A DNA stretch of 64,000 nt, from NCBI GenBank assembly GCA_016188835.1, contig JACPHB010000006.1:1877-65876 (forward strand). Direction: 5' to 3'. Under the pieces are notes generated by a model. It saw only the letters and a program-made list of their open reading frames with translations, made no database searches and was not told where the DNA came from. Position 1 is the stretch's first letter. Each line of letters begins with the position of its first letter. The DNA is from Parcubacteria group bacterium. GTDB lineage: Bacteria > Patescibacteriota > Minisyncoccia > UBA10092. Below, piece after piece: positions 21,309-52,663 of this stretch. Both the position numbers and the translations under genes were made by a program.

Positions 21309-21425
21309 TTGACAATAATATTGCAAAATAAAATTATAGGTGGGGGCGAGCCGTTCGCCGAAGGCGAATGGGCCTGCCTGCCGGCAGGCAGGGCTAAGGA
21401 ATTTTATTTTGCAATATTATTGTCA
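21309..21425. terminator. long palindromic terminator-like element, copy 1: 26-bp perfect IR arms flanking a GC core containing ccgTTCGCCgaagGGCGAAtgg and ggCCTGCCTGCCGGCAGGCAGGgc
   Basis: Perfect inverted repeat ttgacaataatattgcaaaataaaatt / aattttattttgcaatattattgtca; lies 3' of clpC on the minus strand. Confidence 0.6.
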
Positions 21426-23807
21426 TATTAAATTTATTTTATTATTTTTCACGTCCACGATAATATTTTTCTCTTTTCCATTTTTGAGGACAAAATCCGC
21501 CAGAGAATTAATAATCAGTTTATTAATCAAATGTTTTATTTCTCTTGCGCCATTGCGGCTCGAAACGGCTTTGTCGGCGATAAAATTTATTACCGCGGGC
21601 CTTATTTTCAGGCGGCAGTTAATTGAATCATTAGTGAGAATATTTTTAAGTTCAAGCTCGGCAATATACCTCATTTGCTGGCGTCCCAAAGGGTTAAAAA
21701 CCACTATTTCATCAAGGCGCGATAAAAGTTCCGGTATAAAATGGCGGCGCAAGGACTTTAAGCTGGCATTTTTAATTTCATCAAATTTTTCCGCAAACGT
21801 TTTTGAGGCGGCTATAAAACCGAATTTTTTTGCCTCGCGGCTGAATTCTCTTGAGCCGAGGTTGGAGGTTAGAATAACAATGGCGTTTTTAAAATTAGCC
21901 CGTCGGCCGCGATTGTCGGTTAGAACTCCTTCCTCCAAAATTTGGAGCAAAATATTGGCGACTTGGGGGTGCGCTTTTTCTATTTCATCAAAAAGCACTA
22001 CCGAGTGGGGCTCCCTCCGTATTTTTTCGGTTAAATTGCCCGGCTCTTCATAGCCGATGTATCCCGGCGGCGCTCCTATTAATTTAGATATGCTGTGGGG
22101 TTCTGAAAATTCCGACATGTCAATTTTTATTAAAGGCGACCTCAAAATTTCCTTGCTCAAAACTTTTGCCAAATTTGTTTTGCCGACTCCGGTCGGCCCG
22201 ATAAATAAAAATGAACCGAGGGGCTTTTCTCTATTAGATAAGCCGGCGTAAGATCGAGCCAGGGCGGCGGAGAGCGTTTCAATCGCCTCATCCTGTCCGA
22301 TTATATTTTGTTTTAATTTTCGACTGATTTGCTCCGAGCCGAGCTGAGCGGTTGTCTTGCCTGCCTGCGCAGGCAGGCCAAAAACAATATTTGGAATTCC
22401 TGTCATTAAATTCAGTGTCTTAACAACATCTTCTATTTGGAGTTCTAAATCGGTTTTTTCCGTTTCGGTTTCCAAATTTTTCAAAGCGCAGGCCTCGTCG
22501 AGCAGGTCTATCGCTTTATCGGGCAAAAACCTTTCGGTTAAATATTGATTTGACAATTTAACGGCGGCGCTTATGCATTCATTCGAAATTTTTATTTTAT
22601 GGTGATTTTTTAAGGATGGCAAAAGGCCCAGTAGAATTTCTTCGGTTTGGCTTTCTGTCGGTTCGCTAATCATAACCTGCTGGAATCGTCTTTCCAGGCC
22701 GCCGTCTCTTTCCACATATTTTCGCCATTCGGCCAAAGTGGTGGCTCCGATTATTTGTACTTTATTAAGCGACAAGAGCGGCTTAATAATGTTTGAGGCG
22801 TCTAAAGAACCCTGGGCGGCGCCGGCGCCGATAACGGTATGGAATTCATCTATAAAAATTATGGCGTTTTTTTCTTCGGCTTCATATAGCACATCTTTTA
22901 ACCGCTCCTCGAACTCGCCGCGGAAAGTGGCGCCCGAAACGATAGCGCCCAAATCAATCTGAAAAATATTTTTATTCTTTAAATTTTTTGGAACTTCATC
23001 TTTGGCTATTTTTTGCGCCAAACCATATACTATAGCTGTCTTGCCAACACCCGGCTCGCCGATTAGTATTGGATTATTTTTTGTCCTCCGGCTCATTATC
23101 GCGGTCATTCTTTGCATTTCTTTTTTTCTGCCGATTATGGGATCAAATTTTCCGTCTTTAGCCATTGCTACGAGTTCGGCTCCGAAAATTTCAAGTGGCG
23201 CTTTCTCCGGTTCTTCTTCGGATATATTTTTATAAACATCGGCGATCAGTTTATCCAAAATATTCGGGCTATTTTTAGCGGCGGTCACGGGACTGTTAAT
23301 TTTCCCCGAAAGATAAAAAATTTCTTTTAAGTGATTTTCTACATCAACAGCCAGCCGGTGTTTTTGAGCTGAAATCCTGCTTTTAAATTCAGAAATTAAG
23401 CCCCAAAGCAAATGCTCGGTGCCGATGTGCCGGTAACCGTATTTCATTGCTTCTTCGAGTGCCGATGCCAAAACATCGCGGAAAGAAATAACGCTCGGCA
23501 GAGATAAATTTAAGTCATTAATATCCAACCCGTGGTTTTTCAAAATATTGTAAGCCAAACTGCCGCGAGCTTCAAAAACCGCTTTGATTAAATGGCTTCC
23601 GCCAATTTCGCCCCGTAGCTGCGGGGCGGAATTTTCTGCCGCTAAAATGACGCTTTTGGCGCGAGCCGTCAAACGATTCTCAAGAGATGGGGATAACTTC
23701 ATATTTATAATGAATATTTTATGATATAATAAAATTAAATTTAAATTTTGTCTATTTTTATTTATGGCATTGCCTTTTAACATATTCAGCATTGGAAAAG
23801 AACCCAA
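21423..23807 (-). CDS. clpC: ATP-dependent Clp protease ATP-binding subunit (ClpC/ClpB-like, two AAA+ modules, Clp_N repeats)
   Basis: Two Walker A motifs GEPGVGKT and GPTGVGKT; Clp_N N-domain; 794 aa. Confidence 0.85.
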   Translation of the reverse strand: MGSFPMLNMLKGNAINKNRQNLNLILLYHKIFIINMKLSPSLENRLTARAKSVILAAENSAPQLRGEIGGSHLIKAVFEARGSLAYNILKNHGLDINDLNLSLPSVISFRDVLASALEEAMKYGYRHIGTEHLLWGLISEFKSRISAQKHRLAVDVENHLKEIFYLSGKINSPVTAAKNSPNILDKLIADVYKNISEEEPEKAPLEIFGAELVAMAKDGKFDPIIGRKKEMQRMTAIMSRRTKNNPILIGEPGVGKTAIVYGLAQKIAKDEVPKNLKNKNIFQIDLGAIVSGATFRGEFEERLKDVLYEAEEKNAIIFIDEFHTVIGAGAAQGSLDASNIIKPLLSLNKVQIIGATTLAEWRKYVERDGGLERRFQQVMISEPTESQTEEILLGLLPSLKNHHKIKISNECISAAVKLSNQYLTERFLPDKAIDLLDEACALKNLETETEKTDLELQIEDVVKTLNLMTGIPNIVFGLPAQAGKTTAQLGSEQISRKLKQNIIGQDEAIETLSAALARSYAGLSNREKPLGSFLFIGPTGVGKTNLAKVLSKEILRSPLIKIDMSEFSEPHSISKLIGAPPGYIGYEEPGNLTEKIRREPHSVVLFDEIEKAHPQVANILLQILEEGVLTDNRGRRANFKNAIVILTSNLGSREFSREAKKFGFIAASKTFAEKFDEIKNASLKSLRRHFIPELLSRLDEIVVFNPLGRQQMRYIAELELKNILTNDSINCRLKIRPAVINFIADKAVSSRNGAREIKHLINKLIINSLADFVLKNGKEKNIIVDVKNNKINLI

Positions 23808-24861
23808 AAGCTATTTAGGCGTTGATATCGGCACTTTATCAATAAAAATAGTGGAGCTTTCAAGTGAAAACGGCCGGCCAAAACTTCAAAATTATGCCAT
23901 TTTATCGAACTATAATCTGATTGAAAATAAAACTCCAAAAGTATTCGGCGGAGAAGCGTCAATGATGTTAAGACGGATGTTAAAAGAATCGGGCATAGTT
24001 GCGAAAGAAATTAATATGTCGGCGCCGATTTTTTCAAGTTTTCTTACTATTATGGAGTTACCGCCGATGTCAGAATCGGAAGTCGCGAGTGCTATTCAGT
24101 TTGAGGCGAAAAAATACATTCCGGTTCCTCTTGATAGCGTTTTGATTGATTGGTCTTTAATAGGAACCAGCGCCGAAGGCCCCTCGACTACGTTCGGGGC
24201 AGGCCTGCCTGCCGGTCAGGCAGGCAAAATTTTAATTCTTTTAATCGCCATACCCAAGGATTTGGTAAATGAGTACCAATTTATCGCTAGAGAATCCGAT
24301 TTAAAACTTAATAATTTGGAACTAGAAACCACGTCGGCGACTCGCGCCCTTATCGGCAATGATCCGGTCCCGGCGGTGTTAATGGACATGGGTTCGCGAG
24401 ATACTACAATCAGCGTGGTTGATGGCGGATATTTGCGGATCAGCCATTCAATTGAGGCCTCCGGTGAGGATTTAACCAGAGCTTTAGCGAATAGTTTAAA
24501 TATCAGTTGGCGCCGAGCCGAAGAATTAAAAAAAGAACAAGGCCTTAAAGTTATGGATAATAACAATCAAATTAACGATGTTCTTGCGCCTCTTTTAGAC
24601 ACTATTGTTAACGCCGCGAAAAATATTATTGATCTTTATTTTAGTAAAACCAATAAGAAAGTTGAAAAGCTGATTATTTACGGCGGGGCGGCTAAAATGC
24701 CCGGATTTTCGCAGTATCTTGGCAAGGGCCTCGGCATCGACGCCCTTATCGGAAATCCTTTTAGTAAAATCATTTACGATGAAAAATTAAATCCAATCAT
24801 GGAAGAAATAGGTCACGAGTTTACAATAGCGACCGGACTCGCCCTAAAAGCTATACAATAA
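23764..24861 (+). CDS. pilM: type IV pilus assembly protein PilM (actin-like ATPase fold)
   Basis: SYLGVDIGTLSIKIVEL N-terminus and overall PilM architecture; first gene of pilMNO. Confidence 0.85.
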   Translation: MALPFNIFSIGKEPKSYLGVDIGTLSIKIVELSSENGRPKLQNYAILSNYNLIENKTPKVFGGEASMMLRRMLKESGIVAKEINMSAPIFSSFLTIMELPPMSESEVASAIQFEAKKYIPVPLDSVLIDWSLIGTSAEGPSTTFGAGLPAGQAGKILILLIAIPKDLVNEYQFIARESDLKLNNLELETTSATRALIGNDPVPAVLMDMGSRDTTISVVDGGYLRISHSIEASGEDLTRALANSLNISWRRAEELKKEQGLKVMDNNNQINDVLAPLLDTIVNAAKNIIDLYFSKTNKKVEKLIIYGGAAKMPGFSQYLGKGLGIDALIGNPFSKIIYDEKLNPIMEEIGHEFTIATGLALKAIQ

Positions 24862-24862
24862 T

Positions 24863-25393
24863 ATGGTGGAAATTACGCCTCAAAAACCAAAATTAATTTT
24901 ACCAAACTGGTCTTGGCCGCTGTGGCTTTCCCTTGCCCTTTTCTTTTTAAGCGTTTTTGCTTTTGTATTTTTAAAAGTTTATTTTGCCAGAATTCAGGAG
25001 GAAATTGTAAGCATTAATAATCAAATTAAAACCGAGGTCGGCAAAGTAAGCGTTGATGATGAAAACACGGTAATCCGCTTAAGCGATTCTTTAGCCGCTT
25101 TAGACGGCATCGTTTCAAACCACAGTTATTTTTCCAATGTTTTTAGTTTAATCGGCTCTCTCACTTATTCAAAGGCGGTTTTTACCAAATTTGACGCCGA
25201 TCGCGACAACGGCGTCATTAATCTTAGAGGATCGGCTCAGAATTACACGGCATTAGCCAAACAAATGGTTGCTCTCAGAGAAAATGACTACGTCAAGACA
25301 CTGGAAGTTAGAGGAATAAATTTTGGAAGTACGGGATTGGATTTTGATCTGATGCTTGGTATTGATGGTAAAATTTTCATAAAACAGCAATAA
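24863..25393 (+). CDS. pilN: PilN-like pilus assembly protein (single N-terminal TM)
   Basis: Position after pilM; TM plus coiled-coil periplasmic domain. Confidence 0.55.
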   Translation: MVEITPQKPKLILPNWSWPLWLSLALFFLSVFAFVFLKVYFARIQEEIVSINNQIKTEVGKVSVDDENTVIRLSDSLAALDGIVSNHSYFSNVFSLIGSLTYSKAVFTKFDADRDNGVINLRGSAQNYTALAKQMVALRENDYVKTLEVRGINFGSTGLDFDLMLGIDGKIFIKQQ

Positions 25394-25397
25394 ATTT

Positions 25398-25943
25398 ATG
25401 AACTTAAACCTTTTTAAATATATTATTTTGCCGTTTATTCTTTTTTTTGCCGCTCTTGCAATAGGTTTTTGGGTTTTATGGCCGCTTTACGGCGATATTC
25501 AAGCTGCCATGCTTTTAAAGGAACAAAATCAAGACAATTTAACGCAGCGGAAAAAACTCACGGAGAATCTGGAGCGTTTGATAAGCCAATATAATGAACG
25601 CGGTGGCGATATCGCGTCTTTAAATAAAGCTATTCCAAGCGGCCAAAACGTCCCGGAGCTTTTGGTAAATCTTGAAGCGATAGCTTCCGAAAGCGGGTTA
25701 ATTTTTAAAGGCGTGAATTTTAAACCTAAGGACTTGAAAGCTCCGGGCATTAAAACTTTAATAGCGGAAATAAGAGTCACGGGGTCTTATCCGGATTTTC
25801 TAAATTATCTTAAGGCGATGGAAAAAAGTTTGCGGATTTTTGATGTAACCAGTATTTCTTTTGCCGGAGTTTCACCCGGTCAAATTAGCGCGAGAACGGA
25901 TAACATAGATTTTAGTTTAACAGTAAATACTTATTATTATTAA
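25398..25943 (+). CDS. pilO: PilO-like pilus assembly protein
   Basis: Position and TM plus coiled-coil architecture. Confidence 0.55.
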   Translation: MNLNLFKYIILPFILFFAALAIGFWVLWPLYGDIQAAMLLKEQNQDNLTQRKKLTENLERLISQYNERGGDIASLNKAIPSGQNVPELLVNLEAIASESGLIFKGVNFKPKDLKAPGIKTLIAEIRVTGSYPDFLNYLKAMEKSLRIFDVTSISFAGVSPGQISARTDNIDFSLTVNTYYY

Positions 25944-25946
25944 ATT

Positions 25947-26294
25947 ATGGTTAACATTTCTCCAACATTGCCGCCATCAGGCACTTTCGGCGCTTTTAAG
26001 CCCCAAGCCCCCCAAAAAAGATCTCTTTTGCCATATTTAGTTATTGGTGCGGTAATTTTAATTTTGGCCGCCGGTTATTATTTTTTTATTTATCAAGGGA
26101 TTGGTTTTTCTCTAGCTACTCCAGTTATTCCGGGGGCTTCTCCTTTAACCTCAATTGAAATTAAAGTAGCTCAATTACCGAGCTTTCAATTTAATGTCTT
26201 TAATAGTTCTCTTTACAAATCGCTTAAAAGCTATGGTGCTCTGCCGGTTGTAGCCGATTCGCTCGGAAGAACAAATCCTTTTATTCCATATTAA
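25947..26294 (+). CDS. small membrane protein in the pilus locus (possible PilP-like), hypothetical
   Basis: TM helix; sits between pilO and pilB. Confidence 0.35.
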   Translation: MVNISPTLPPSGTFGAFKPQAPQKRSLLPYLVIGAVILILAAGYYFFIYQGIGFSLATPVIPGASPLTSIEIKVAQLPSFQFNVFNSSLYKSLKSYGALPVVADSLGRTNPFIPY

Positions 26295-26297
26295 AGC

Positions 26298-27854
26298 ATG
26301 GCGATTGACATAGACAAAAAAATACCGCCTGATGTTCTGGTTCTCATTTCGGAAGAAGCGGCCAGGTATTATAAGATGATCCCGCTCAACCTTTCCGGCA
26401 ATGTTTTAGATGTCGGATTGGTTAATCCGGGTGATGTCAGGGCGCAGGAAGCGCTCAGTTTTTTAACTTCCAGAAACGGCTTGGCGGCCAGAGTTTTTAA
26501 AATCAGCGAAGAAGATTGGCTGGTTTTGATTAAACAATATGCGGGGATTAAAGAGGAAGTAGGAGAGGCGCTGGAGGGCTTAAGAAAAGAACTGGCGGAA
26601 GAAAAACTTTTATTGCCGGAAATACCAAAAAGTAAAAAAGAAGAAGCGGCGCCGATAATAAGAATGATGGAAACGATTTTAAAGCACGGTATTGAATCCA
26701 AGGCCTCAGATATTCACATTGAGCCGACAATGAAAAAATTAAGAGTCCGTTTTCGTCTTGACGGCACATTGCAAACAGTTGTGGTTTTACCGGTAGAAAT
26801 TGCGCCGGCCATTGTGGCGCGAGTAAAAATTCTCTCAAATCTTCAGATTGACGAGACGCGGAGGCCTCAAGACGGCCGTTTTACCACCAAGTTGGGCGAA
26901 AAAGAAGTTGATTTCAGAGTGGCAATTTTGCCAACGGCCAGAGGCGAAAAAGCGGCGCTTAGAATTTTAGATCCCACCATTGGGCTAAGAACATTGCCGG
27001 AACTCGGCATTATCGGCCGCAACTTGGAGGTTGTTGAAAGGGGAATAAAAAAACCTTTTGGCATGGTACTTATGACAGGGCCGACCGGTTCCGGGAAATC
27101 CACGACTATTTACGGGATTCTCCAAATTCTTAATACTGAATTGGTAAATATTGTCAGCTTGGAGGATCCGGTTGAATATTACGTTGATGGCGTAAATCAA
27201 TCGCAAATCAGACCGGAACTCGGCTATACTTTTGCTTCCGGTTTGCGGCAAATTTTGCGCCAGGATCCGAATATTATTGTTGTTGGAGAAATGCGCGACA
27301 GCGAAACCGCCGGGCTTGCGGTGCAATCGGCTTTGACCGGCCACTTAGTTTTATCTACTTTACACACCAATGATGCCATAGGCGTTATTCCTCGCTTGAT
27401 AGATATGGGAGTTGAACCATTTCTTTTACCCTCGGCTTTAAATGTGGCTTTGGCCCAGCGCTTGGTTAAAAGGTTATGCCCCGATTGCAAAAAAGAGACA
27501 GAACCTTCGGAACCGGTGAAAAAAATTATTTTGGAAGCCATAAATTCCATGCCGGAAATAAACCGGCCAAAGATAAAGTCCGACAAATTTCAAATTTACA
27601 AGCCCCAAGGTTGTCCCAAATGCGGCAATAAGGGCACCAAAGGCCGAATTGCGGTTTTTGAAATTTTAGAGGTGACTCCCCAGATTGAAGAAATAATTAT
27701 TTCCGGGCCTACCGAATCAAAAATTTTAGCCGAGGCTAAGAGGCAGGGGATGGTAACAATGTTTCAAGATGGAATTTTAAAGGTTTTAGATGGTATAATT
27801 GGTTTTGAAGAATTAACTCAAGTTGTCAGTGTCAACGCCGAGGAATCAAAATAA
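26298..27854 (+). CDS. pilB: type IV pilus assembly ATPase PilB (GspE family)
   Basis: N-terminal T2SE_N domain; Walker A VLMTGPTGSGKSTT; C-terminal CPDC..CPKC zinc motif. Confidence 0.9.
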   Translation: MAIDIDKKIPPDVLVLISEEAARYYKMIPLNLSGNVLDVGLVNPGDVRAQEALSFLTSRNGLAARVFKISEEDWLVLIKQYAGIKEEVGEALEGLRKELAEEKLLLPEIPKSKKEEAAPIIRMMETILKHGIESKASDIHIEPTMKKLRVRFRLDGTLQTVVVLPVEIAPAIVARVKILSNLQIDETRRPQDGRFTTKLGEKEVDFRVAILPTARGEKAALRILDPTIGLRTLPELGIIGRNLEVVERGIKKPFGMVLMTGPTGSGKSTTIYGILQILNTELVNIVSLEDPVEYYVDGVNQSQIRPELGYTFASGLRQILRQDPNIIVVGEMRDSETAGLAVQSALTGHLVLSTLHTNDAIGVIPRLIDMGVEPFLLPSALNVALAQRLVKRLCPDCKKETEPSEPVKKIILEAINSMPEINRPKIKSDKFQIYKPQGCPKCGNKGTKGRIAVFEILEVTPQIEEIIISGPTESKILAEAKRQGMVTMFQDGILKVLDGIIGFEELTQVVSVNAEESK

Positions 27855-28991: not shown

Positions 28992-29007
28992 TTTTAAATA
29001 TTTCAAA

Positions 29008-35162: not shown

Positions 35163-35334
35163 GTGGTCTAAGCGGCAAAAATAATAAATACAACTGAAAT
35201 AATAAAATATATAAAAATTTTTCGGAATACATCCATCAATGAACAAGCCGGAAAATGGCTACCATGGCTAAATTTTATCCGTCCAACCGGCGAATTGCGG
35301 TTATTGCTACGGTAGATTCAAAATAATAAATAAA

Positions 35335-35520
35335 TCATTTTCCTCGCCCCGCATACAACTTGTTGTTGTGCGGGGCTCGCGCTCTCGGTCGCCCAGCGAC
35401 TCCCTCGCTGTCCGATGAAAGCGTTTTATTCAAAATGCAGGTATAATTCCGATCGGAATTAAACATGCATTTTGAAACCATGCTAAAACGCTTTCATAAG
35501 CTTCGGAAAATAATTTATTT
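35335..35520. repeat. structured repeat element copy B (homologous to 21161-21300) with two extra internal hairpin inserts; part of an 866-bp ORF-free island
   Basis: Shared blocks attttcctcgc / cgctctcggtcgcccagcg..ctcgctgtccgatgaaagcgttttattc / aaaccatgctaaaacgctttcataagcttcggaaaat. Confidence 0.6.
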
Positions 35521-38570: not shown

Positions 38571-40328
38571 ATGATCAGCAACCGTGAAATTTCAAAAATA
38601 CTCTACGAAATAGGAGAATATCTTGAAATAAAAGGAGTAATGTTTAAACCTCGGGCTTATGAAAAAGCGGGTTATTCCGTTGAAAATTTAGAAGAGGAGG
38701 TCGCAGAGATTTATAAAAAAAACGGCTTAAAAGCGGTAGAAGACATTCCCGGCATCGGTGTTTCTATAGCTCTTAAAGTTGAAGAACTTTTAAAAACCGG
38801 CCGTTTAAAATATTATGAAAAATTAAAAAAATCTTTTCCGGTTAAAATTGGAGAACTTTCAGCTATTGAAGGCATGGGGCCGAAAATGATTTTTAAGCTT
38901 TACAAGAAACTTAAAATTCGTAGCATAAAAGATTTAGAAAAAGCGGCCGGGGCTGGGAAAATCGCTGTGATTGCCGGTTTTGGGAAAAAAACCGAAGAAA
39001 AGATTTTAAAAGGCATTGAATTTTTAAGAAAATCAGGCGGCCGATTTTTACTTGGTGTTGTTTTGCCGCAAGCCAGATCAATTGAAAATCGTCTTAAAGA
39101 ATTAAAGCATGTAAACAGGGTCGCGATTGCCGGTTCGCTCCGGAGAATGCAGGAAACAATCGGCGACCTTGATTTTTTAGTAACTTCAAAAAAACCGAAA
39201 GAAGTAATGAAATTTTTTGTTTCTATGCCAGAAATATCGCATATTTATTCGCAGGGGCAAACCAAAACAATGGTTCGACTAAAAAGTGGAATTGATGCCG
39301 ACTTGCGAGTTATACCAGATATTAGTTTTGGCGCTGCTTCACAGTATTTTACCGGAGACAAACGCCACAATATAACCATTCGCGCTTTAGCCGAGCGCAA
39401 AGGTTTTAAACTAAACGAATACGGTCTGTGGCGGGGTGAAAAACTTATTGCGGGGGAAACGGAAGAGGAAATTTACAAGTCGCTCGGCATGGTGACACCA
39501 TCGCCGGAAATAAGAAACGATTCTGGAGAAATTCAAGTAGCACTGCAAAATAAACTTCCAAAACTTATCGGATACGGCGATGTGAGAGGGGATTTGCAAG
39601 TTCAAACAAACTGGACCGATGGCGAAAATTCCATTGAGGAAATGGCAGAAAGCGCGAAAAGCGCAGGCTTGGAATATATCGCCATAACTGATCACACCAA
39701 AAGTTTGGCGATGACCGGCGGTGCCGATGAAAAGAAATTATTAAAGCAGATGGCCGAGATTGATCAGTTAAATTCTAAATTTCAAGCTCTAAATTCCAAG
39801 TTCCGAATATTAAAAGGTGCCGAAGTTAATATTTTAAAAGACGGCATGCTCGATATAAAAGATGAGGTTTTGGCAAAACTGGATGTTGTTGGCATAGCGG
39901 TTCATTCACATTTTAATCTTTCTCGGGCTGAACAAACCAAAAGAATTATTAAAGCGATGAAAAACAAAAACGCCGATATATTGTTTCACCCGACCGGCCG
40001 TTTGATCCAAAAACGGGAACCTTACGATGTTGATGTTGAAGAAATCATAAAAGTAGCGAAAGAAACAGGAACGATTTTGGAAATTGATGCCGATCCGTAC
40101 CGTTTGGATTTAAAAGATGAATATATAAGGAAAGCGGTTGCGGCCGGCGTTAAACTGTCTATTAATACCGATGCTCACTCTAAAAATAGTTTTCACTATC
40201 TGGAATTTGGCATTGCCCAGGCGCGCCGCGGCTGGGCGGGTAAAAACGACATTATAAATACTCGGCCATGGCCGGAGATGTTAAAATTATTAAAAACAAA
40301 ACAAAATATAAAAAATAAAATTGCTTAG
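38571..40328 (+). CDS. polX: DNA polymerase X family protein with C-terminal PHP phosphoesterase domain
   Basis: N-terminal HhH/pol-beta-like domain, GDLD-type nucleotidyltransferase region, PHP His-rich motifs (ITDHT, HSHF, NTDAHS). Confidence 0.85.
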   Translation: MISNREISKILYEIGEYLEIKGVMFKPRAYEKAGYSVENLEEEVAEIYKKNGLKAVEDIPGIGVSIALKVEELLKTGRLKYYEKLKKSFPVKIGELSAIEGMGPKMIFKLYKKLKIRSIKDLEKAAGAGKIAVIAGFGKKTEEKILKGIEFLRKSGGRFLLGVVLPQARSIENRLKELKHVNRVAIAGSLRRMQETIGDLDFLVTSKKPKEVMKFFVSMPEISHIYSQGQTKTMVRLKSGIDADLRVIPDISFGAASQYFTGDKRHNITIRALAERKGFKLNEYGLWRGEKLIAGETEEEIYKSLGMVTPSPEIRNDSGEIQVALQNKLPKLIGYGDVRGDLQVQTNWTDGENSIEEMAESAKSAGLEYIAITDHTKSLAMTGGADEKKLLKQMAEIDQLNSKFQALNSKFRILKGAEVNILKDGMLDIKDEVLAKLDVVGIAVHSHFNLSRAEQTKRIIKAMKNKNADILFHPTGRLIQKREPYDVDVEEIIKVAKETGTILEIDADPYRLDLKDEYIRKAVAAGVKLSINTDAHSKNSFHYLEFGIAQARRGWAGKNDIINTRPWPEMLKLLKTKQNIKNKIA

Positions 40329-40385
40329 CCCCACCCCGCCTGCGGCGGGGCGGCTCGCCCCCACCTACAATTTTATTTTTTATAT
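40326..40385 (+). terminator. rho-independent terminator (ccccgcc-tgc-ggcgggg hairpin, then T-rich tail)
   Basis: GC hairpin immediately after the polX stop, followed by ttttatttttt. Confidence 0.55.
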
Positions 40386-40410
40386 TTTGTTTCTTAACAT
40401 TATTATCACC

Positions 40411-40662
40411 ATGATTCATTTTAAGAAAAAAGTTTTTGAAGCGGTTAAAAAAATTCCCCAAGGGAAAACCGCGACTTATAAAGAAGTCGCGGTTTTGGCC
40501 GGCCGACCGCGCGCTTGGCGCGCGGTCGGTAATATTTTAAGCAAGAATTTTAACCCCAAAATTCCTTGCTATCGGGTAATCCGTTCTGATGGCAAAATCG
40601 GCGGCTACAACCGCGGCGTTTCAAATAAGAAGTTACTACTTAAAAAAGAGGGAGCAAAATAA
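40411..40662 (+). CDS. minimal MGMT-family protein (methylated-DNA-protein-cysteine methyltransferase DNA-binding/active-site domain only, 83 aa)
   Basis: TYKEVA..GRPRAWRAVGNIL..NPKIPCYRVIRSDGKIGGY = Ogt C-terminal domain with the PCxRV active-site Cys; the longer ORF from 40321 would run through the upstream terminator. Confidence 0.7.
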   Translation: MIHFKKKVFEAVKKIPQGKTATYKEVAVLAGRPRAWRAVGNILSKNFNPKIPCYRVIRSDGKIGGYNRGVSNKKLLLKKEGAK

Positions 40663-40755
40663 AACCAAGTAAAATTTTTAAAATTGTAGGCGGGGTCGTG
40701 CCGTTCGCCGAAGGCGAATGGGGCTACGACAATTTTAAAAATTTTACTTGGTTTT
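40661..40755. terminator. long palindromic terminator-like element, copy 2: perfect 27-bp IR arms (aaaaccaagtaaaatttttaaaattgt) around the core aggcggggtcgtgccgTTCGCCgaagGGCGAAtggggctacg; the right arm is the 3' end of rplT
   Basis: Perfect inverted repeat; shared core with 21336-21400 and 52598-52638; lies between the convergent MGMT and rplT genes. Confidence 0.65.
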
Positions 40756-41088
40756 ATTTATTATCTCTTTAAAAATTTCCGGATACTCGCGCGCCAATTC
40801 CGATAAAACTTTTCTATCAAGCTCTATATTTGATTTTTTTAAGCCATGCATAAATTTGCTGTAATTTAATCCATGTTCACGGGCGGCGGCGTTGAGCTGG
40901 ATTTGCCACAAGCCTCTTGCGGTTCTTTTTTTAACCCGCCGATCACGATATGCGTGAGTCCACGCGTGAAGCAAAGCTTCTTTAGCAGCCCGTTCTTTTG
41001 ACTTACGGCCCCACTTGAAACCTTTCGTGTATTTTAAAATTTTTTCCCGCCTTTTTAAGGCGATTTTTCCTCGTTTAACTCTAGGCAT
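40744..41088 (-). CDS. rplT: 50S ribosomal protein L20
   Basis: MPRVKRG..KRRE.ILK..KGF.G highly conserved L20 N-terminus. Confidence 0.9.
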   Translation of the reverse strand: MPRVKRGKIALKRREKILKYTKGFKWGRKSKERAAKEALLHAWTHAYRDRRVKKRTARGLWQIQLNAAAREHGLNYSKFMHGLKKSNIELDRKVLSELAREYPEIFKEIINKTK

Positions 41089-41814: not shown

Positions 41815-42016
41815 ATAGAATATTTTGATTAAATTTAATATGCTGAATATTAATTGGTTTCTATAAAAAAGTCAAACATTTGAGAGATTTTTGTTGTGCC
41901 CCTCGACTATCGCTCAGGGCACTCGTCTCAAAACAAAAACCAGAAACAAGTTTCTGGTTTTTGTTTTCGCTGTGGTTTACCACGAGCGAACATTGCCAAA
42001 AGCAATGTGAGTCGAG

Positions 42017-42456
42017 TGGAAGTGGCGAGAGTTGAACTCGCATCTAGAATTTAGCAATTAAACATATCTACAGGCGATAGGCTATTTATTGTTTTAGAAA
42101 TCTTTCTTAAAACAGCCAAAATAAAAGATTCCCGTTTCTTCTTTGGTTCTATCCGAATCGAAGAATTTTCGGATTAAAGCCTAATGGTTGACACCGGTAT
42201 TGTCCTATTAGACATCAGACAGCCGATGCCCTCCTACGTTAAAACTTCGGAGGGTGAAACCCGCTTAAGCAAAAGCGAAAGCAGGAGTTAGATTTGTTTT
42301 GGCAGTTATTTTCTGCTTTGCCCTCCATAGCTTTACGCGAAGGAGGGCAATCTCGGGGATTGTCGCATCCCGCTGAGCGGGACGGAATTTCGAGGTTACG
42401 AGATATCCTCGGCCTGCATATTTAATTTTAAAATTCTATCGAAGCCCATCACCCCC
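42017..42456 (-). ncRNA. ssrA: tmRNA (ssrA): tRNA-like 5' GGGGGUGAUGGGCUUCGA.., 3' GCGAGUUCAACUCUCGC-CACUUCC-A; predicted tag reading frame at 42265-42303 (AKTNLTPAFAFA*)
   Basis: Minus-strand 5' end and T-arm/acceptor 3' end match tmRNA consensus (E. coli GGGGCUGAUUCUGGAUUCGAC.. / GCGGGUUCAACUCCCGCCAGCUCCACCA); AUAACU-GCC resume context like E. coli AUAGUC-GCA; directly adjacent to smpB. Confidence 0.75.
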
Positions 42457-47500: not shown

Positions 47501-48163
47501 AAACTTATTGCTCCATTTCTGCCGTTTTTATCTGAGGAAATTTACTTATACTTAACCCGCTTCGCTAAAGCTCCAGCGAGGCGAGAAGACAAAACAATGC
47601 CGGATTCGGTGCATCTCTGCGACTGGCCGAAATCCGACAAAAAATTTATCAATCAGAAATTGGAAGAACAAATGGATTTAGTTAGGGAGATGGCCGCCAA
47701 AGGGTTGGCGCTTCGAGCGGAGGCGGGAATTAAAGTGAGGCAACCGCTCGCTTCGCTCCAATTTCCAATTTCTAATTTTAAATTTTCAAAAAATAAAGAA
47801 CTTTTGGAGTTGATTAAAGACGAGGTAAACGTGAAAAAAATTATTTTTGGCAATAAGTTTAAATTGGACGCAAAAATCACACCAGAATTAAAAGAAGAGG
47901 GAATTATAAGGGATTTGGCGCGGCAAATTCAGGAAATGAGGCGTGACGGGGGATTGGTGCCGAAAGATTTTATAAAAATTTATTTTAAAATTAACGATGT
48001 CGAATTGGAAAACACTGTTAAAAAACGGCAAAAAAATCTCATGATTAACGTAGGCGCAAAAACCATTGAACTTATTGACGTCGCAAAAGAAGGTCTTTTA
48101 ATCGACCGGCACTTTGAACGCGGCGGGGAAGATGTGTGGATAGGATTTGAAAAAATAAAATGA
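44585..48163 (+). CDS. ileS: isoleucyl-tRNA synthetase (type 2) with an inserted histidine-phosphatase (PGAM-like) domain of about 200 aa between the Zn-ribbon and the LHRPYVD motif
   Basis: HIGH-type P..HHAWG, CP1 editing TTTPWTL, KMSKS as EMHKSKGN; the insert about 46050-46650 has the RHG catalytic motif LLRHGEAENN and SHANPIV (histidine phosphatase branch 1). Confidence 0.9.
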   Translation: MELFSPKTEEKILDFWQKNQIFEKLRQKIRGQKHWSFLDGPITANNPMGVHHAWGRTYKDLFQRYKAMRGFDQRFQNGFDAQGLWVEVEVEKELGFKSKKDIEKYGIAKFVEKCKERVRKYSEIQTNQSIRLGQWMDWKNSYYTMSNENNIAIWHFLKKCREKGLLYKGHDVVPWCWRCGTAISQHEILTEDYKEVTHDSVYIEYPIVGNRASNIFNKKNTYLLVWTTTPWTLLGNAAIAIDPEKIYAEATGEIKGNSYYLIKTAAEKLNLKIIRTFKGKELVGLIYKSPFDNLPTVKKTLSGFVHKVVATDSRILPVSEEEGTGLVHIAPGQGVEDYRLAKKLKIPAVNLIDDAAVYLKDLGQFSGKNAKEHPEIIINYLKTADFLFDAPKYTHRYPICWRCKTELVWKIADEWYISMDKLRKPLMEIAKKIKWIPSFGLGREIDWLKNMSDWLISKKRYWGLALPIFECRCGNFEVVGSLADFDKYSLRKPNHYILLRHGEAENNRLKITSSYPEKEKYPLTIKGIGEIEKLIPWFKKKRVDLVFSSDILRARETAQIIAGALGKTVTYEKRLREHNFGDYNGRTHKEWHSLFGSNKTNQYATKPLGGENLKDVQKRMTSFLKELDKKYEGKTILIVSHANPIVAAASAYNGYKNEETFEKFNIDETTGSVVEIYGHNWPYNNDGDLDLHRPYVDEIRIKCSKCGKMVSRVLDVGNPWLDAGIVPYSTIGYFEEHVKLPDGSNVPGKKFWRKWFPAELVCESFPGQFKNWFYSLIVMSAVLEKVPPMKTVFGYASVRDDKGEEMHKSKGNAIWFDEAAEKIGVDVMRWMYVKQNPADNLKFGYAPAKEHERKLMNLWNSFTFFKTYASHKPSSKLSFDKLRIPSGVEGQAPSSLLDQWILSRLNNLIEKVTKDLDKYDSASASRAIEEFFIEDLSLWHIRRSRVRFQMPKSEKEKQEAVEMLYLVLFSLSKLIAPFLPFLSEEIYLYLTRFAKAPARREDKTMPDSVHLCDWPKSDKKFINQKLEEQMDLVREMAAKGLALRAEAGIKVRQPLASLQFPISNFKFSKNKELLELIKDEVNVKKIIFGNKFKLDAKITPELKEEGIIRDLARQIQEMRRDGGLVPKDFIKIYFKINDVELENTVKKRQKNLMINVGAKTIELIDVAKEGLLIDRHFERGGEDVWIGFEKIK

Positions 48164-48642
48164 ATTATTATCAAACTAAAGCCATAGTTTTGAAAAGAGA
48201 AGACATTTTTGAGGCCGATCGCATTTACAATTTATATACTGAAGAATTTGGAAAAGTTAGGGCGATTGCCGGCAGTGTTCGTAAAATCAATGCCAAACTT
48301 TCCGGACACTTAGAACCGTTTAATATTATTTGGGTTGAACTGGCGACCAAAAAAAACGGCGATTTATTTATTACCACCGCTTTGTCTTTTAAAAAACTTT
48401 TAAGTCATAATATTTTGCCTGCTCAAACCGCTCTTTTTGCCAAAATGGCAGATTTTTCCTGTTTAATGCTAAAAGGTCCGCAAAAAGACGAAATGTTATG
48501 GAGTTATATTTTAGAAAGTTTTGTAAAAGCCAGTATAGTTGGAACGGACACTGATAAATTTTTAGGCGCTTATAAAACCGGCTTCATTAAAATAATGGGA
48601 TTTGGGGATAATTTAGAAGAGGCCTTATGGTATAATTATTGA
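48160..48642 (+). CDS. recO: DNA repair protein RecO (short form, OB-fold N-domain plus helical domain, no zinc finger)
   Basis: KAIVLKREDIFEADRIYNLYTEEFGKVRAIAGSVRKINAKLSGHLEPFN matches the RecO N-terminal domain. Confidence 0.6.
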   Translation: MNYYQTKAIVLKREDIFEADRIYNLYTEEFGKVRAIAGSVRKINAKLSGHLEPFNIIWVELATKKNGDLFITTALSFKKLLSHNILPAQTALFAKMADFSCLMLKGPQKDEMLWSYILESFVKASIVGTDTDKFLGAYKTGFIKIMGFGDNLEEALWYNY

Positions 48643-50429
48643 CAATGATTCAAATTCCAACACCTACGACGTCGCCGAAATTTTCCGGCCCGTCGTTGCC
48701 TCAAGCAGTTCGTTTTTTTAGTCCCCGGCAAAAAAAAATCCTGATTATCGCCAGTATCATTTTTCTTATAGTTGTTATTTTAAGTGGCATCGGTTTTTAT
48801 TTTTGGCTGACCTCGTTTAAAAAATCACGGGTTGATTTTAATATTTCTGGACCGACTCAAGCAGCCAGCGGAGAGCAAATTACCTATCAAATTTCTTATT
48901 GGAATAACACCAATCAAATTCTTCAAAACGCCAATTTAACAGTTCGTTATCCGCAAGAAGCGGTGGTTGCCGGTGGCAAGATTATTCAAAATGTTGATTT
49001 GGGCAATATCGGTATTGGCGGTGGCGGTAAAATCGAAGTTAATTTGGCTTTTGTTGGTTCGGATAAAAGTATCCAGAAACTTCAAGCAGTTTTAAGTTAT
49101 AAACCGCAAAATACCGTCTCAACTTTTGAAAATGAGGCCGTTAAAGAAGTGGCTATAAATGGTTCGGCGTTGACCGTTGATTTTAAAGCGCCGGAAACTG
49201 TTTTGCCGAACATTAGAAATGTTTATATAATCCATTATAAAAACAATACTGAAGAAGTTTTAAAGAACGTTTCAATTGAAGCAAGCTATCCGCAAGATTT
49301 CAATTTTGTGTCTTCGGATCGTGTGCCGGCAAAAAGCAATAATGTTTGGAATTTAGGCGATTTAAATCCCAATGAAGAAGGTAATATCACTGTTTTGGGA
49401 ATTTTAAGAAATACCGAAAGCGCTAACTTCGAATTGGCCATCGGCATTCGGGAAAGTGATAAATTTTTTAAGTTTAGTCGCAGTTCGGCTCAAATCAATT
49501 TAACTGCTTCGCCCATTGCTGTAGACATATCGGTAAATAATCAGTCAAGCATCACTATTAATCCGGGCGATTTTCTGCAATTTAAAATCAGCTACAAAAA
49601 TAATACCAGTATTACCTTGTCCGATATTGTTTTAAAGGCCAAGCTCGACGGTTTAATGTATGATTTTTCTTCCCTTAAGACCAAGGGTTTTTACAATGGT
49701 TCGGATAATGCCATTACTTGGAATGCCGGAAATACGGCAGAATTTAAGAATTTAGAACCAGCCGCTACGGGTGAGGTGGAATTTCAAATCACTGTTAAAC
49801 CGCAATATATTATTAGAACTTTCAGGGACAAGAATTTTTTGCTTCAGGTTTTAGCGACAATGGAAACGCCGACCGTACCGCCATCTTTAGCGGTTAAGTT
49901 GCTTTCGGTTTCAAGCGATTTAGCTTTGAAAGTTAATACTAAAGCGGAACTTAAAACCAAAGGTTATTATTATGATACGGTTATTAAAAATTCCGGGCCT
50001 TTACCGCCGAAGGTGAGTAAAACCACCACTTACACTATTCATTGGCAGGTTGCCAATTATTCTAATGATCTTGATAAAGTTATTGTCAAAACAGTTTTAC
50101 CGGAAGGCGTCAGTTGGCAGAGTAAAAAAGCCGGCGCCGGCGCCGCCACCTTAGAATACAACGATCGAACTAGCGAACTTACCTGGAACATCGGTAAATT
50201 GCCGGCTGGAACCGGACTACTGCTTGATCCGTATGAAGTGATTTTTCAAGTGGCTTTAACGCCTTCAATAAAAAATGTAAACACTATTATGCCGGTTATA
50301 AGCGATTCAAATTTAACCGCCGAGGACATTTTTACCGGTATCGGTGTCACAGCATCAGCGCCGGCGCTAAAAACCGATATGCCGGACGACCTCGGTGTCG
50401 GTTTTACTAAAAGCCGCATCCAACCTTGA
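48639..50429 (+). CDS. large membrane-anchored surface protein with repeated beta-rich (DUF11-like) domains, hypothetical
   Basis: N-terminal TM; N/T/S-rich repetitive beta pattern. Confidence 0.45.
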   Translation: MTMIQIPTPTTSPKFSGPSLPQAVRFFSPRQKKILIIASIIFLIVVILSGIGFYFWLTSFKKSRVDFNISGPTQAASGEQITYQISYWNNTNQILQNANLTVRYPQEAVVAGGKIIQNVDLGNIGIGGGGKIEVNLAFVGSDKSIQKLQAVLSYKPQNTVSTFENEAVKEVAINGSALTVDFKAPETVLPNIRNVYIIHYKNNTEEVLKNVSIEASYPQDFNFVSSDRVPAKSNNVWNLGDLNPNEEGNITVLGILRNTESANFELAIGIRESDKFFKFSRSSAQINLTASPIAVDISVNNQSSITINPGDFLQFKISYKNNTSITLSDIVLKAKLDGLMYDFSSLKTKGFYNGSDNAITWNAGNTAEFKNLEPAATGEVEFQITVKPQYIIRTFRDKNFLLQVLATMETPTVPPSLAVKLLSVSSDLALKVNTKAELKTKGYYYDTVIKNSGPLPPKVSKTTTYTIHWQVANYSNDLDKVIVKTVLPEGVSWQSKKAGAGAATLEYNDRTSELTWNIGKLPAGTGLLLDPYEVIFQVALTPSIKNVNTIMPVISDSNLTAEDIFTGIGVTASAPALKTDMPDDLGVGFTKSRIQP

Positions 50430-50667
50430 TTGGTTTTCATTTTATAATTTATAAAAATTTTATAAATTATAAAATGATAATAAAAAATGATGTCAAAATT
50501 TATTTCATCCTCAATTCCTTGCTATAGTTAGGAATTGAGGATATTACTATATTAGTAATACATTAACGATGAAAATATGATTATTGACAAAAACACGCCC
50601 ATTATTTAATGTATAGAGAAGATAGCATTGTACTTTTATAGTATTATCCAAGGCAAGGAGGGCTATA

Positions 50668-51150
50668 ATGTTGAAATCGGTTCTTTTGGGTTTTACTGCT
50701 TTGCTTCTCGTTGTTAGTGTTCAATTGTCAGCAGTTTCTGCAAATCAATGTGTTCCTTTGTCTGATGGCGCTGTGCCAGATGAATCAAGTGCGGGTTGGA
50801 AAGAACGCGGGTTTTCGCGGGCCGATCTTGTGATTGATGTGGAAACGAAAAGTGGAGAGCGCGTAGTTGTTGGCAATCGAAAATATTATATCCACGACAA
50901 CGGAATGAAGCTTGGAGTTTATTCATATTTTGGTAAAGTAGGATTTAAGGCCTGGTCGTGCGACAAAAATCGCGATCCGGTTACGCGCGATGCTCAAGAT
51001 CATATGATTGCTGTATCGCAGTCAGATGGTAGTTGGCTAATCCGTCACGCCCAAAGTCCTGATGTAGAGGTAGCCTTCGGTGCTGACGGAAAGCCCATGG
51101 GTGTTACGATTACACTCAACGGGATTGAAACGTGGTTCAGTAATCAGTAA
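50668..51150 (+). CDS. secreted hypothetical protein (signal peptide), relatively GC-rich
   Basis: RBS aaggaggg 7 nt upstream; signal peptide ...SAVSA; about 48% GC against AT-rich flanks. Confidence 0.55.
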   Translation: MLKSVLLGFTALLLVVSVQLSAVSANQCVPLSDGAVPDESSAGWKERGFSRADLVIDVETKSGERVVVGNRKYYIHDNGMKLGVYSYFGKVGFKAWSCDKNRDPVTRDAQDHMIAVSQSDGSWLIRHAQSPDVEVAFGADGKPMGVTITLNGIETWFSNQ

Positions 51151-51165
51151 ATGGATATTGTTTGA

Positions 51166-51205
51166 TAAATAACCCTTATGAGGCTGGAAATCCCAGCCTA
51201 TTTTT
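51166..51205 (+). terminator. rho-independent terminator (aggctggg-aaat-cccagcct then T9)
   Basis: Perfect 8-bp stem followed by a T-run. Confidence 0.65.
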
Positions 51206-51246
51206 TTTGTTTATTGGTTAGAAATATGTTATTCTAACTTTTAGTT

Positions 51247-52599
51247 ATGGCGCAAACAAAAGATAAAAAAGAAAATTTAATGGAAAAAATTGTGTCGCTT
51301 TGTAAAAGGCGGGGGTTTATTTTTCCCGGCAGTGAAATTTACGGCGGTCTCTCCGGCACTTGGGATTATGGCCCGGTGGGCGCGCTTTTTAAAAAAAATA
51401 TTAAAGATTTGTGGTGGCGCGACACGGTTCAGTTGCGGGACGATGTTGTTGGCGTTGATGCGGCAATCATGATGAATCCGAAAGCTTGGGAGGCATCGGG
51501 TCATACCGAGGCTTTTAGCGATCCACTTGTGGAATGTAAAATTTGTCATGAAAGATTTCGCGCCGATAAGGAAATGGAAATTAAAAATCACGAAAAAACT
51601 CATAATAAAACAATAGAATGGACCAAATCAAAGAAATTTAATTTACTAGTTAAAGCTTACCTCGGTGTTTTAGAAGGCGAGGAGTCCCAAATTTATCTTC
51701 GCGGTGAAATAACTAATGGCGTTTCTGTAAATTTTAAAAACATCATTAATTCAACTCGGGTAAAAATTCCTTTCGGCGTCGCTCAAATCGGCAAGGCATT
51801 CAGAAATGAAATCACGCCGGGCAATTTTACTTTCCGATCGCGCGAATTTGAACAAATGGAAGTCCAATTTTACATTAAGCCCGAAGAAAAAGAAGGAAAA
51901 AAATGGTTTGACTACTGGAAAAAAAACCGGATGGATTGGTATCTTTCTTTGGGCATAAAAAAAGAAAACCTAAGATTCAGAGATCATGCCTTAAATGAGC
52001 GGGCTCATTATGCCCGAATGGCAACCGATATTGAATATAAAAGTCCTTGGGGCTGGCAGGAGTTTATGGGCATTCATCACCGGGGCGACTGGGATTTGAA
52101 AAGGCACCAGCAATTTTCTGGCGAAGACATGTCTTTTAGCGACCCCCAAACCGGTGAAAAATATTTGCTGTGGGATATAGAAACTTCTGCTGGAGTTGAC
52201 CGCTCGATCCTTTTTTTATTAATTGACGCTTATCGGGAGGAGGGCGGCAGAGTTTATCTTAAACTTCATCCGGCGCTTTCGCCCTATAAAGCGGCGGTTT
52301 TTCCGCTTTTAGCCAACAAGCCCGAACTTGTAAAATTGGCGAGAAAAATTTATGATGATTTGCGGCCGCAATTTATGACGGCTTGGGATGATCGTGGCAA
52401 CATCGGCAAGCGTTACTACAGCCAGGACGAATTGGGGACGCCGTTTTGCGTTACGGTTGATTTTGACTCCCTTGAAGACAAAAAAGTTACGGTTCGCGAC
52501 AGAGACACGATGAAACAGGAAAGAATCTCAATTTTAAAATTAGCGGAATATTTAAAAAATAAATTAAATGAAGATGAAAATAAAATTTTAAAATTGTAG
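51247..52599 (+). CDS. glyQS: glycyl-tRNA synthetase (alpha2 dimeric type)
   Basis: RRGFIFPGSEIYGGLSGTWDYGPVG N-terminus; class II motifs. Confidence 0.9.
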   Translation: MAQTKDKKENLMEKIVSLCKRRGFIFPGSEIYGGLSGTWDYGPVGALFKKNIKDLWWRDTVQLRDDVVGVDAAIMMNPKAWEASGHTEAFSDPLVECKICHERFRADKEMEIKNHEKTHNKTIEWTKSKKFNLLVKAYLGVLEGEESQIYLRGEITNGVSVNFKNIINSTRVKIPFGVAQIGKAFRNEITPGNFTFRSREFEQMEVQFYIKPEEKEGKKWFDYWKKNRMDWYLSLGIKKENLRFRDHALNERAHYARMATDIEYKSPWGWQEFMGIHHRGDWDLKRHQQFSGEDMSFSDPQTGEKYLLWDIETSAGVDRSILFLLIDAYREEGGRVYLKLHPALSPYKAAVFPLLANKPELVKLARKIYDDLRPQFMTAWDDRGNIGKRYYSQDELGTPFCVTVDFDSLEDKKVTVRDRDTMKQERISILKLAEYLKNKLNEDENKILKL

Positions 52600-52663
52600 G
52601 CGGGGTCGTGCCGTTCGCCGAAGGCGAATGGGGCTACGACAATTTTTAAATTTTATTTTCATC
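52573..52663. terminator. long palindromic terminator-like element, copy 3: the left arm is the last 8 codons of glyQS (gatgaaaataaaattttaaaattgt), the right arm is its inverted copy, around the same GC core
   Basis: Inverted repeat with one indel; core identical to copy 2. Confidence 0.65.

Follow-up and report, generated by a model that had tools for sequence, protein, structure and literature searches.

We report a palindromic repeat present in four copies in a 64,000-nucleotide stretch of DNA from a Parcubacteria group bacterium (assembly GCA_016188835.1, contig JACPHB010000006.1, positions 1,877 to 65,876; referred to as the window, with positions counted from its first letter). The window has a G+C content of approximately 39% and holds a tmRNA gene, one tRNA gene and housekeeping genes, most of them on the plus strand. 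Copy 1 is situated between the clpC stop and the comF start (both genes on the minus strand), copy 2 between the convergent MGMT-like gene and rplT, copy 3 at the junction of glyQS and an M16-peptidase gene, and copy 4 between the gene for PolX and the MGMT-like gene; all four are located at gene 3' ends (Table 1). Our data make it likely, if by no means certain, that they are members of a family of non-autonomous palindromic repeats of approximately 95 to 125 bp, each forming one long hairpin.

A preliminary description of this DNA had presented three of the loci as a common core flanked by near-perfect inverted repeats of 25-27 bp, different at each locus, with the ends of adjacent genes copied into them. 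The common core is real: the 22-nt sequence GCCGTTCGCCGAAGGCGAATGG occurs exactly three times in the window, always on the plus strand (starts at 21350, 40700 and 52610), and zero matches are expected in shuffled sequence even at three mismatches; the fourth, inverted copy had been missed. The inverted repeats are also real, copies 2, 3 and 1 being the three longest and copy 4 the fourth longest in an inverted-repeat search of the window, but their lengths in copies 1 to 3 are 26, 31 and 31 nt and the arms of copy 3, which have a tandem GA/GA mismatch, are 90% complementary. The arms differ between loci in their outer parts but not throughout, an inner arm of 14-17 nt being common to copies 2 and 3 and AAAATAAAATT to copies 1, 3 and 4. 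The core of copy 3 is identical to that of copy 2. Copy 1 has the apical hairpin TTCGCC-GAA-GGCGAA at 21354-21368 and a second GC palindrome, CCTGCCTGCCGGCAGGCAGG, nested in its core at 21373-21392; in copy 4 the apical hairpin is CCCCGCC-GCA-GGCGGGG and the core is the reverse complement of a related core.

Gene ends do lie within the arms. The stop codon of the MGMT-like gene (40660-40662) is in the left arm of copy 2, and the rplT stop (40744-40746) together with the last four codons is in its right arm. The left arm of copy 3 contains the end of the glyQS open reading frame (ORF; 51247-52599), the TAG stop of which opens the core. In copy 4 the PolX stop is a TAG inside the core, in the complement of the core's CTAAG end. 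In copy 1 the right arm takes in no more of a gene than the clpC stop codon, whose TGA makes up its outermost 3 nt.

Table 1. Positions of the repeat copies and of associated features in the window
Feature	Position	Strand	Description
Copy 1	21310-21425	+	Arms 21310-21335 and 21400-21425 (26 nt, 100% complementary); core 21336-21399
Copy 2	40657-40759	+	Arms 40657-40687 and 40729-40759 (31 nt, 100% complementary); core 40688-40728
Copy 3	52567-52669	+	Arms 52567-52597 and 52639-52669 (31 nt, 90% complementary); core 52598-52638
Copy 4	40299-40392	-	Arms 40299-40323 and 40368-40392 (25 nt, perfect); core 40324-40367
PolX C-terminal extension (TKQNIKNKIA*)	40296-40328	+	Read from the left arm of copy 4
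GlyQS C-terminal extension (EDENKILKL*)	52571-52599	+	Encoded by the inserted left arm of copy 3
Direct target duplication, left copy (AATAAATTAAATG)	52558-52570	+	
Direct target duplication, right copy (AACAAATCAATG)	52672-52683	+	Provides the ATG of the M16-peptidase gene

The repeat family and its conserved fold

The pattern TAGGYGGGGKCGWGCCG-N(10-40)-GGGCTA, which matches all four window copies, was searched in bacteria and archaea, each species being represented by a single genome. Thirty of the 33 loci found are in 10 assemblies of Patescibacteria (candidate phyla radiation, CPR) and hold 31 copies, 14 of which come from one fragmented metagenome-assembled genome; the other three are in high-GC genomes, have no arms and are chance matches. 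The core pattern gave no match in viral contigs. As far as sampled, the family is confined to some Paceibacteria-type Patescibacteria. Flanking inverted repeats are present in every CPR copy, with perfect pairing over at least 20 nt in 20 of the 35 copies, and when gaps are allowed the median number of paired arm positions is 26.5. A covariance model built from the alignment found only these copies, and no more divergent ones, in 281 kb; it detected no element at any of 80 related glyQS loci obtained in a metagenome scan (60-90% identity, 446 kb), compared with the four copies in the 64-kb window. At the gathering score the Rfam 15 matches in the window were the tmRNA and one tRNA only, with no family for the elements, and a permissive Rfam scan of 40250-40800 returned only generic long-hairpin microRNA models far below threshold. 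Our search of the literature available to us found no description of such repeats in CPR bacteria.

Between the two arms the aligned copies read (C/G)TAGG, Y, GGGGKCGWG, CCG, then a small hairpin that varies, and lastly TGGGGCTA with AG or CGA after it; in copy 1 the core opens with ATAGG. The apex of the element is conserved, asymmetric and G-rich, and the stem is made of the AT-rich arms. According to RNAalifold the arms form one helix that continues with TAG/CTA, Y-G and CCG/TGG (including a near-invariant G.U) into the variable hairpin, where C-G and U-A alternate in 12-14 sequences per position, and the nine nucleotides GGGGKCGWG form a 5' bulge. On this structure 93.7% of the cells are paired, versus 76.1% in shuffles, and changes on both sides are seen at 15 pairs; the observed values were reached by 0 of 500 shuffles and in no slid register.

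The fold is strand specific. On the G-rich strand the arm mismatches comprise 8 G.T versus 1 A.C and 14 purine-purine (8 of them G.A) versus 5 pyrimidine-pyrimidine, and several apical hairpins hold tandem G.A pairs. This strand gives the more stable fold, by 5-8 kcal/mol as RNA and 1-3 kcal/mol as DNA, and whole elements fold at -43 to -62 kcal/mol for the core-sense strand and -37 to -54 kcal/mol for its complement, with z-scores of -7 to -11. Among 36 apical loops 25 are GNA triloops, often within GCGAAGC, a classic and very stable DNA mini-hairpin. Relative to the neighbouring genes, the orientation of which was called by a crude ORF heuristic, approximately 10 copies are sense, 10 antisense, 9 convergent and 3 apparently divergent. 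Furthermore, in two of four orthologous filled pairs (L021/L033, which have the same arms, and L011/L029; L numbers denote loci compared with the window) the core is on opposite strands in co-linear flanks. The mismatch bias, the difference in strand stability, the even and flipping orientation and the GNA triloops would favour a role for the folded G-rich single strand of DNA, such as in mobilisation, over one in host mRNA.

Orthologous sites with and without the repeat

In five close relatives (74-89% amino acid identity) GlyQS ends with ..KLNV*, there is no element, and the GlyQS TAA overlaps the start codon of the M16-peptidase gene (aaattaaATGTATAAaaaaacc). Compared with these the window has approximately 114 extra bp after AAATTAAATG at the glyQS end, and a target of approximately 12 bp is duplicated directly (AATAAATTAAATG / AACAAATCAATG). 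Since the relatives without the element end 9-10 residues earlier and the target is directly duplicated, glyQS was lengthened into the inserted arm. The earlier view that the arm of copy 3 is a copied glyQS end is not borne out, since the relatives' GlyQS is shorter and the tail lies in the inserted arm; nor is the statement that a direct target duplication of the kind left by miniature inverted-repeat transposable elements (MITEs) is missing.

A similar picture emerged for PolX. The extra TKQNIKNKIA is missing from all 44 close homologues with printed C-termini, 42 of which end exactly with ..LLK*, and the PolX-MGMT spacer has no element in L115, L119, L121 and L123, the two genes overlapping by ATGA in L123. 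A possible direct duplication surrounds copy 4 (AAATTATTA / AACATTATTA). Hairpins at this gene end turn over quickly. We also noted that the spacer (window, 40329-40410; L115, 4729-4845; L119, 4250-4346; L121, 3217-3278; L122, 3256-3330) contains, depending on the genome, an element of the present (first) family, a palindrome centred on TGCGATCGCA, an unrelated hairpin, a third palindrome type, or none (L123).

At another locus L032 is filled and L034 empty. The empty site consists of overlapping genes (..AAAAAATTATGAAAT..), and the filled site has arm, core and arm, an upstream ORF that is longer by approximately 10 codons and a second AAAAAATATG. Presence or absence at orthologous sites was seen in all for glyQS, the PolX-MGMT spacer, L032/L034, L010/L022 and L031 versus the window. 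The direct duplications at glyQS, PolX and L032 are roughly 9-13 bp, imperfect, in an AT-rich context and not firmly fixed in length; no tetranucleotide in the left flank is common to the copies.

Arms recur at unrelated loci. Those of copy 1 are identical at 24 of 26 positions to the arms of L031/L125 (CAZBVM01), at a different locus, those of copy 3 match L007 and L034 over approximately 31 nt including the tandem GA mismatch, and those of copy 4 resemble the arms of L017. None of L007, L034, L031 and L017 encodes ClpC, ComF, GlyQS, M16, PolX, MGMT or RplT, and orthology of these to the window loci, as the matching arms might suggest, was ruled out by tblastn and synteny. L031 is syntenic with the window at 11-19 kb, its element being positioned between the orthologues of ORFs 16468-17547 and 18127-18984; the upstream gene ends with ..KKLGQQ* in L031, with CAA CAA TAA within the arm, and its window counterpart with ..LKLK*. 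The clpC-comF spacers of the L031/L125 genome and of L126 have no first-family element. One arm set can carry different cores (copy 3 versus L007/L034, and L004b versus L014), and identical cores are found within differing outer arms (copies 2 and 3). As a separate observation, the exact position of the L031/L125 element is occupied in the window (17621-18101) by two small ORFs (82 and 75 amino acids), hicB/hicA-like as judged by eye on the translations, and no element is present there.

The rplT locus has a longer history. In L118-L120 (closest relative found) a copy with the same core as in the window, identical among these three independent assemblies, is at the same place, and RplT and the MGMT-like protein both end with ..INKTK*, each stop inside one arm. 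L123 has no core here; the same outer arms, AAACAAAACAAAATAA / TTATTTTGTTTTGTTT, surround a plain 16-nt GC hairpin, and the two proteins end with ..KNKTK* and ..INKTK*. The palindrome over the MGMT-like and rplT ends is older than the core, because L123 has the outer arms without it. In copy 2 the ancestral palindrome corresponds to the outer ~16 nt of each arm, and the inserted unit to the inner ~15 nt with the core. As had been stated, native rplT coding sequence is mirrored across the palindrome, but it was so before the core arrived, arms without core being present in a sister genome, a finding that the preliminary description itself had named as one that would speak against its proposal. 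At a comparable pair of sites, L022 with the element and L027 with a simple hairpin (AGAAATAAAATAA-CCCCGCAGTTGCGGGG-TTATTTTATTTCT), the outer arms are homologous. In L119 (4560-4700) and L123 (3440-3530) the convergent MGMT-like and rplT genes stop in the two arms of one palindrome, which gives two unrelated proteins the same end peptide. In L115 (5116-5386) the MGMT-rplT spacer is 271 nt, versus 81 nt in the window, and has several GC-rich hairpins and no Rfam match.

Three substitutions separate the rplT-side arm of the window from that of L119/L123. Each is synonymous in rplT and has its mirror image in the opposite arm. An intermediate with a mismatch was not seen, and one of the substitutions is a transversion, which cannot pass through a wobble pair. 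Judged from these comparisons, long perfect pairing is actively maintained and the arms evolve in concert. The mirrored substitutions agree with the other explanation offered in the preliminary description, maintained long hairpins, in so far as pairing is concerned, and the elements are at sites that in relatives carry hairpins of terminator type.

Other palindromes are present in and around the window. A second family has AT-rich arms around a GC-rich core (TCGCGCTCTCGGTCGCCCAGCG..CCTCGCTGTCCGATGAAAGCGTTTTATTC..GAAACCATGCTAAAACGCTTTCATAAGCTTC); one copy (21156-21304) abuts copy 1, another (approximately 35320-35520) has two nested hairpins, and a third, on the reverse strand of L010 (approximately 3070-3220), sits at the site of the first-family element in L027. 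The third palindrome type, centred on TATAATTCCGATCGGAATTA, is nested in a second-family copy at 35429-35476 and stands alone in L121 at 3217-3278 (PolX-MGMT spacer). The fourth type, ATCCTCAATTCCT..AGGAATTGAGGAT, is found at different loci, 50507-50542 in the window and approximately 7290-7330 in L125 (clpC-comF spacer). The perfect GC palindrome GCCTGCCTGC/GCAGGCAGGC is present inside clpC (22350-22379, encoding GLPAQAGKT), in the core of copy 1 (21373-21392) and at 24196-24226; small GC hairpins may themselves spread, also into coding sequence. Just downstream of the tmRNA gene (42014-42456, minus strand) is a coreless palindrome of similar style, with two perfect 18-bp halves and a 2-nt centre (41930-41967; AAAACAAAAACCAGAAAC gt GTTTCTGGTTTTTGTTTT). 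Finally, a high-GC region at approximately 1280-1500, inside an ORF without Pfam match, has two near-identical tandem segments, each ending in the palindrome CTCCGGCAATTGCCGGAG (1380-1397 and 1479-1496).

Known repeats and alternative explanations

Repetitive extragenic palindromes (REPs) of the GTAG type are short GC-rich imperfect hairpins located between co-directional or convergent genes, downstream of coding regions and sometimes within genes (Di Nocera 2013, PMC3733652). The present repeats resemble the REP/BIME/REPIN elements of Proteobacteria, with their RAYT tyrosine transposases, in having a conserved (G)TAG on one strand, many copies per genome and a strand-specific fold, in forming larger hairpins and in being located 3' of genes between co-directional or convergent ORFs. 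REPs carry an unpaired GTAG (or CGTC) tag directly at one end of an imperfect palindrome of 20-40 bp. The present repeats differ in that no unpaired tag is present at the foot of the stem, where 11-12 nt lie between the TAG and the small hairpin and the TAG is predicted to pair with CTA, in that there is a single asymmetric apex and not two inverted REPs, and in the long, variable, AT-rich stems and the direct target duplications. No gene for a RAYT, a Y1 HUH transposase whose gene is usually flanked by the repeats, was found among the ten window ORFs scanned with Pfam, which is the extent of the RAYT search.

Correia (Neisseria), ERIC/IRU (enterobacteria) and RUP/BOX elements are likewise whole-element hairpins of approximately 100-150 bp at gene ends in both orientations, and MITE-like repeats share presence/absence polymorphism and direct target duplication, although the duplications seen here are imperfect and, other than in classical MITEs, of no firmly fixed length. 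Repeats of the Correia/ERIC type are co-transcribed and affect termination and mRNA stability. In classical MITEs, which are deletion derivatives of DDE insertion sequences, however, the termini are conserved for transposase binding and the centre varies, whereas here the centre is conserved and the termini vary; in addition, Correia elements duplicate TA, compared with approximately 10-13 bp here. The family thus differs from REPs by the position and pairing of the TAG and by the single apex, and from MITEs by its conserved centre. Rickettsia palindromic elements (RPEs) are palindromic repeats of a small AT-rich genome that are part of ORFs and are translated. The gain of 9-10 residues by GlyQS and PolX is reminiscent of these, but RPEs are in frame inside genes and the present repeats are at gene ends, with the ORF stopping in arm or core. 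Yeast mitochondrial GC clusters and the hairpin elements of sponges and algae are also small GC-rich palindromic modules in AT-rich spacers with nesting of hairpins, in other hosts and with other sequences, and to our knowledge a conserved asymmetric core with long AT stems has not been described for them. IS200/IS605 elements and their miniature derivatives differ by insertion 3' of a fixed target of 4-5 nt without duplication and by subterminal hairpins at both ends, in contrast to one central hairpin and direct duplications. In the model of Ripley, quasipalindrome correction by template switching perfects imperfect inverted repeats and copies changes from arm to arm. Such a process may account for the mirrored rplT changes and for the upkeep of the arms only; it is a mutational process and not an element family.

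Five further candidates were considered and rejected. The attC sites of integrons are parts of cassettes and are conserved at their outer ends, in contrast to the conserved centre and the neighbouring housekeeping genes seen here; DNA uptake sequences act as inverted pairs of the motif itself. For an HDV-like ribozyme, suggested by a shared GGCGAAUGGG string, the core does not offer the length needed to form the nested pseudoknot, and its hairpin is variable in sequence. A G-quadruplex at the apex is unsupported by the second core type (TAGGCGGGGTCGTGCCG..CTACGA, copies 2 and 3), and a composite transposon formed by copies 4 and 2, inverted around the MGMT-like gene, does not agree with the same place of this gene in relatives with one or no element.

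We consider it probable that the repeat is a mobile, REP/MITE-like palindrome residing at the positions of terminator hairpins, and that neighbouring genes run on into its arms, the arms themselves not being copies of gene ends. The opposite course, proposed in the preliminary description, starts from a short GC core that integrates by foldback or template switching; in doing so it would make an inverted copy of the neighbouring gene end, giving locus-specific arms. At rplT one of the arms does consist of native coding sequence, the inverted copy of which terminates the MGMT-like gene (both proteins ending with ..INKTK* in L119), and perfect arms are expected from synthesis off the other arm. 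The empty site L017 has 10 nt of the right arm of L004 (TTTTCTTCTC), and in L004 the inverted copy of these is on the other side; yet the L004 arms recur at a second locus of the same genome, L014, and the L017 state may therefore equally be a partial deletion or a microhomology junction. Against foldback copying, the rplT palindrome exists without core in L123, the arms at glyQS, PolX, L032 and L031 are missing from both sides of the empty sites, the same arms of 24-31 nt are found at unrelated loci, and direct duplications flank the glyQS insertion. It is contradicted for three of the four window copies, and we regard it as improbable as an explanation of the arms.

Rather unlikely, in our judgement, is that the repeats are non-mobile, vertically inherited transcript-end hairpins (bidirectional terminators or mRNA-stabilising stems), the apex of which binds a host RNA- or DNA-binding protein and which resemble one another between loci through gene conversion only. 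The copies are at gene 3' ends or junctions and take the place of simple A-tract / GC-hairpin / T-tract hairpins of sister genomes, which fits a role at transcript ends. The stems are also kept more strongly than the flanks (L007 and L034 have identical arms in flanks that are 79% identical), arm changes are compensated and the folds are very stable. But the repeat has inserted into overlapping junctions without any hairpin, duplicating the target and altering protein C-termini, its distribution is patchy (four copies in the window versus none at the related glyQS loci), and its orientation is random and flips despite the strand-specific fold. A scan for canonical terminators and promoters listed none of the four copies, and the 22 terminator-like sites found, versus 23 expected, do not constitute an enrichment.

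A gene or cis-element for a structured small RNA, with the apex of the G-rich strand as aptamer, ribozyme or protein-binding motif, would agree with the covarying apical helix, the near-invariant G.U, the tandem G.A pairs, some GNRA loops and the arm mismatches that are compatible with G.U on the G-rich strand only. We hold this to be very doubtful: there is no Rfam family and only weak matches to generic long-hairpin microRNA models, half of the co-directional copies are antisense to both neighbours, the core is inverted between orthologues, the loops are mostly GNA triloops of the DNA mini-hairpin type, and there is no conserved promoter-like context. Chimeric foldback reads can yield palindromes, and a Logan contig from another run, matching the window at 99.98%, ends exactly inside copy 3, where a break is expected because of a 60-nt exact repeat. 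An assembly artefact is nevertheless hardly conceivable, with the identical rplT copy in three independent assemblies, the family in 10 further assemblies from different projects, and orthologous copies that diverge with compensated changes.

Several observations weigh against a mobile palindrome as well. The conservation of the core is in part a product of the search itself, which used a core pattern to gather the copies, and the even orientation depends on the crude calling of gene orientation. The direct duplications come from 3-4 sites compared at 74-89% protein identity and are imperfect in an AT-rich context. What the copies have in common is the core and the inner 11-17 nt of the arms; further out they diverge, with no conserved terminal motif of the kind found in classical MITEs, and shared arms with different cores demand an extra recombination step. 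In a canonical terminator a T-run follows the GC-rich stem-loop within 0-2 nt, but here 9-10 nt separate the GC hairpin from the T-rich tract, which itself pairs with the left arm, and the L004/L017 pair, though ambiguous, can be read as an inverted copy of a 10-nt flank. Finally, no transposase or HUH enzyme was found in the Pfam scan of 10 poorly characterised ORFs among the window's 57 of at least 100 amino acids.

Proposed mode of spread and implications

The site comparisons show what insertion does. At a compact gene junction a target of roughly 10-13 bp is duplicated directly, which restores the start codon downstream, and the upstream ORF runs on into the arm to a stop, often the TAG of the core. 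Elsewhere the core and inner arms take up the apex of a pre-existing palindromic hairpin of terminator type, and the apex can be inverted between orthologous loci. A trans-acting protein could recognise the conserved apex on the G-rich single strand, probably of DNA, once this is folded. The stem would then be a passenger, kept perfect because one arm is corrected against the other by template switching or gene conversion, and recombination through the shared inner arms might re-assort cores and arms. In the cell the element probably acts as a bidirectional hairpin at transcript ends, or is at least no hindrance to one.

As a speculation to which we attach little probability, the apex may be the handle of an undescribed system that acts on one folded strand of DNA and mobilises the whole stem-loop irrespective of how long its stem is or what sequence it has. 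Such a system would insert it, with a long staggered duplication, at compact gene junctions and at the apices of hairpins. If true, transposition would here be guided by the centre of the element and not by its ends, in bacteria with otherwise minimal genomes. The combination of a conserved apex and a free stem is a puzzle that end-binding transposases do not explain.

The mirrored substitutions in the rplT arms are a clear case, found in nature, of the two halves of a palindrome evolving in concert. For annotation and assembly, the repeats mean that contigs break at the copies and that ORF ends can be element-encoded. Should the elements act as terminators, they would offer a handle for studying transcription termination in uncultivated bacteria. 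The genomes of Patescibacteria, usually called poor in repeats and mobile DNA, would be less static than assumed, as a repeat family reshapes gene ends, here by adding 9-10 residues to GlyQS and PolX and by giving two convergent genes the same end peptide.

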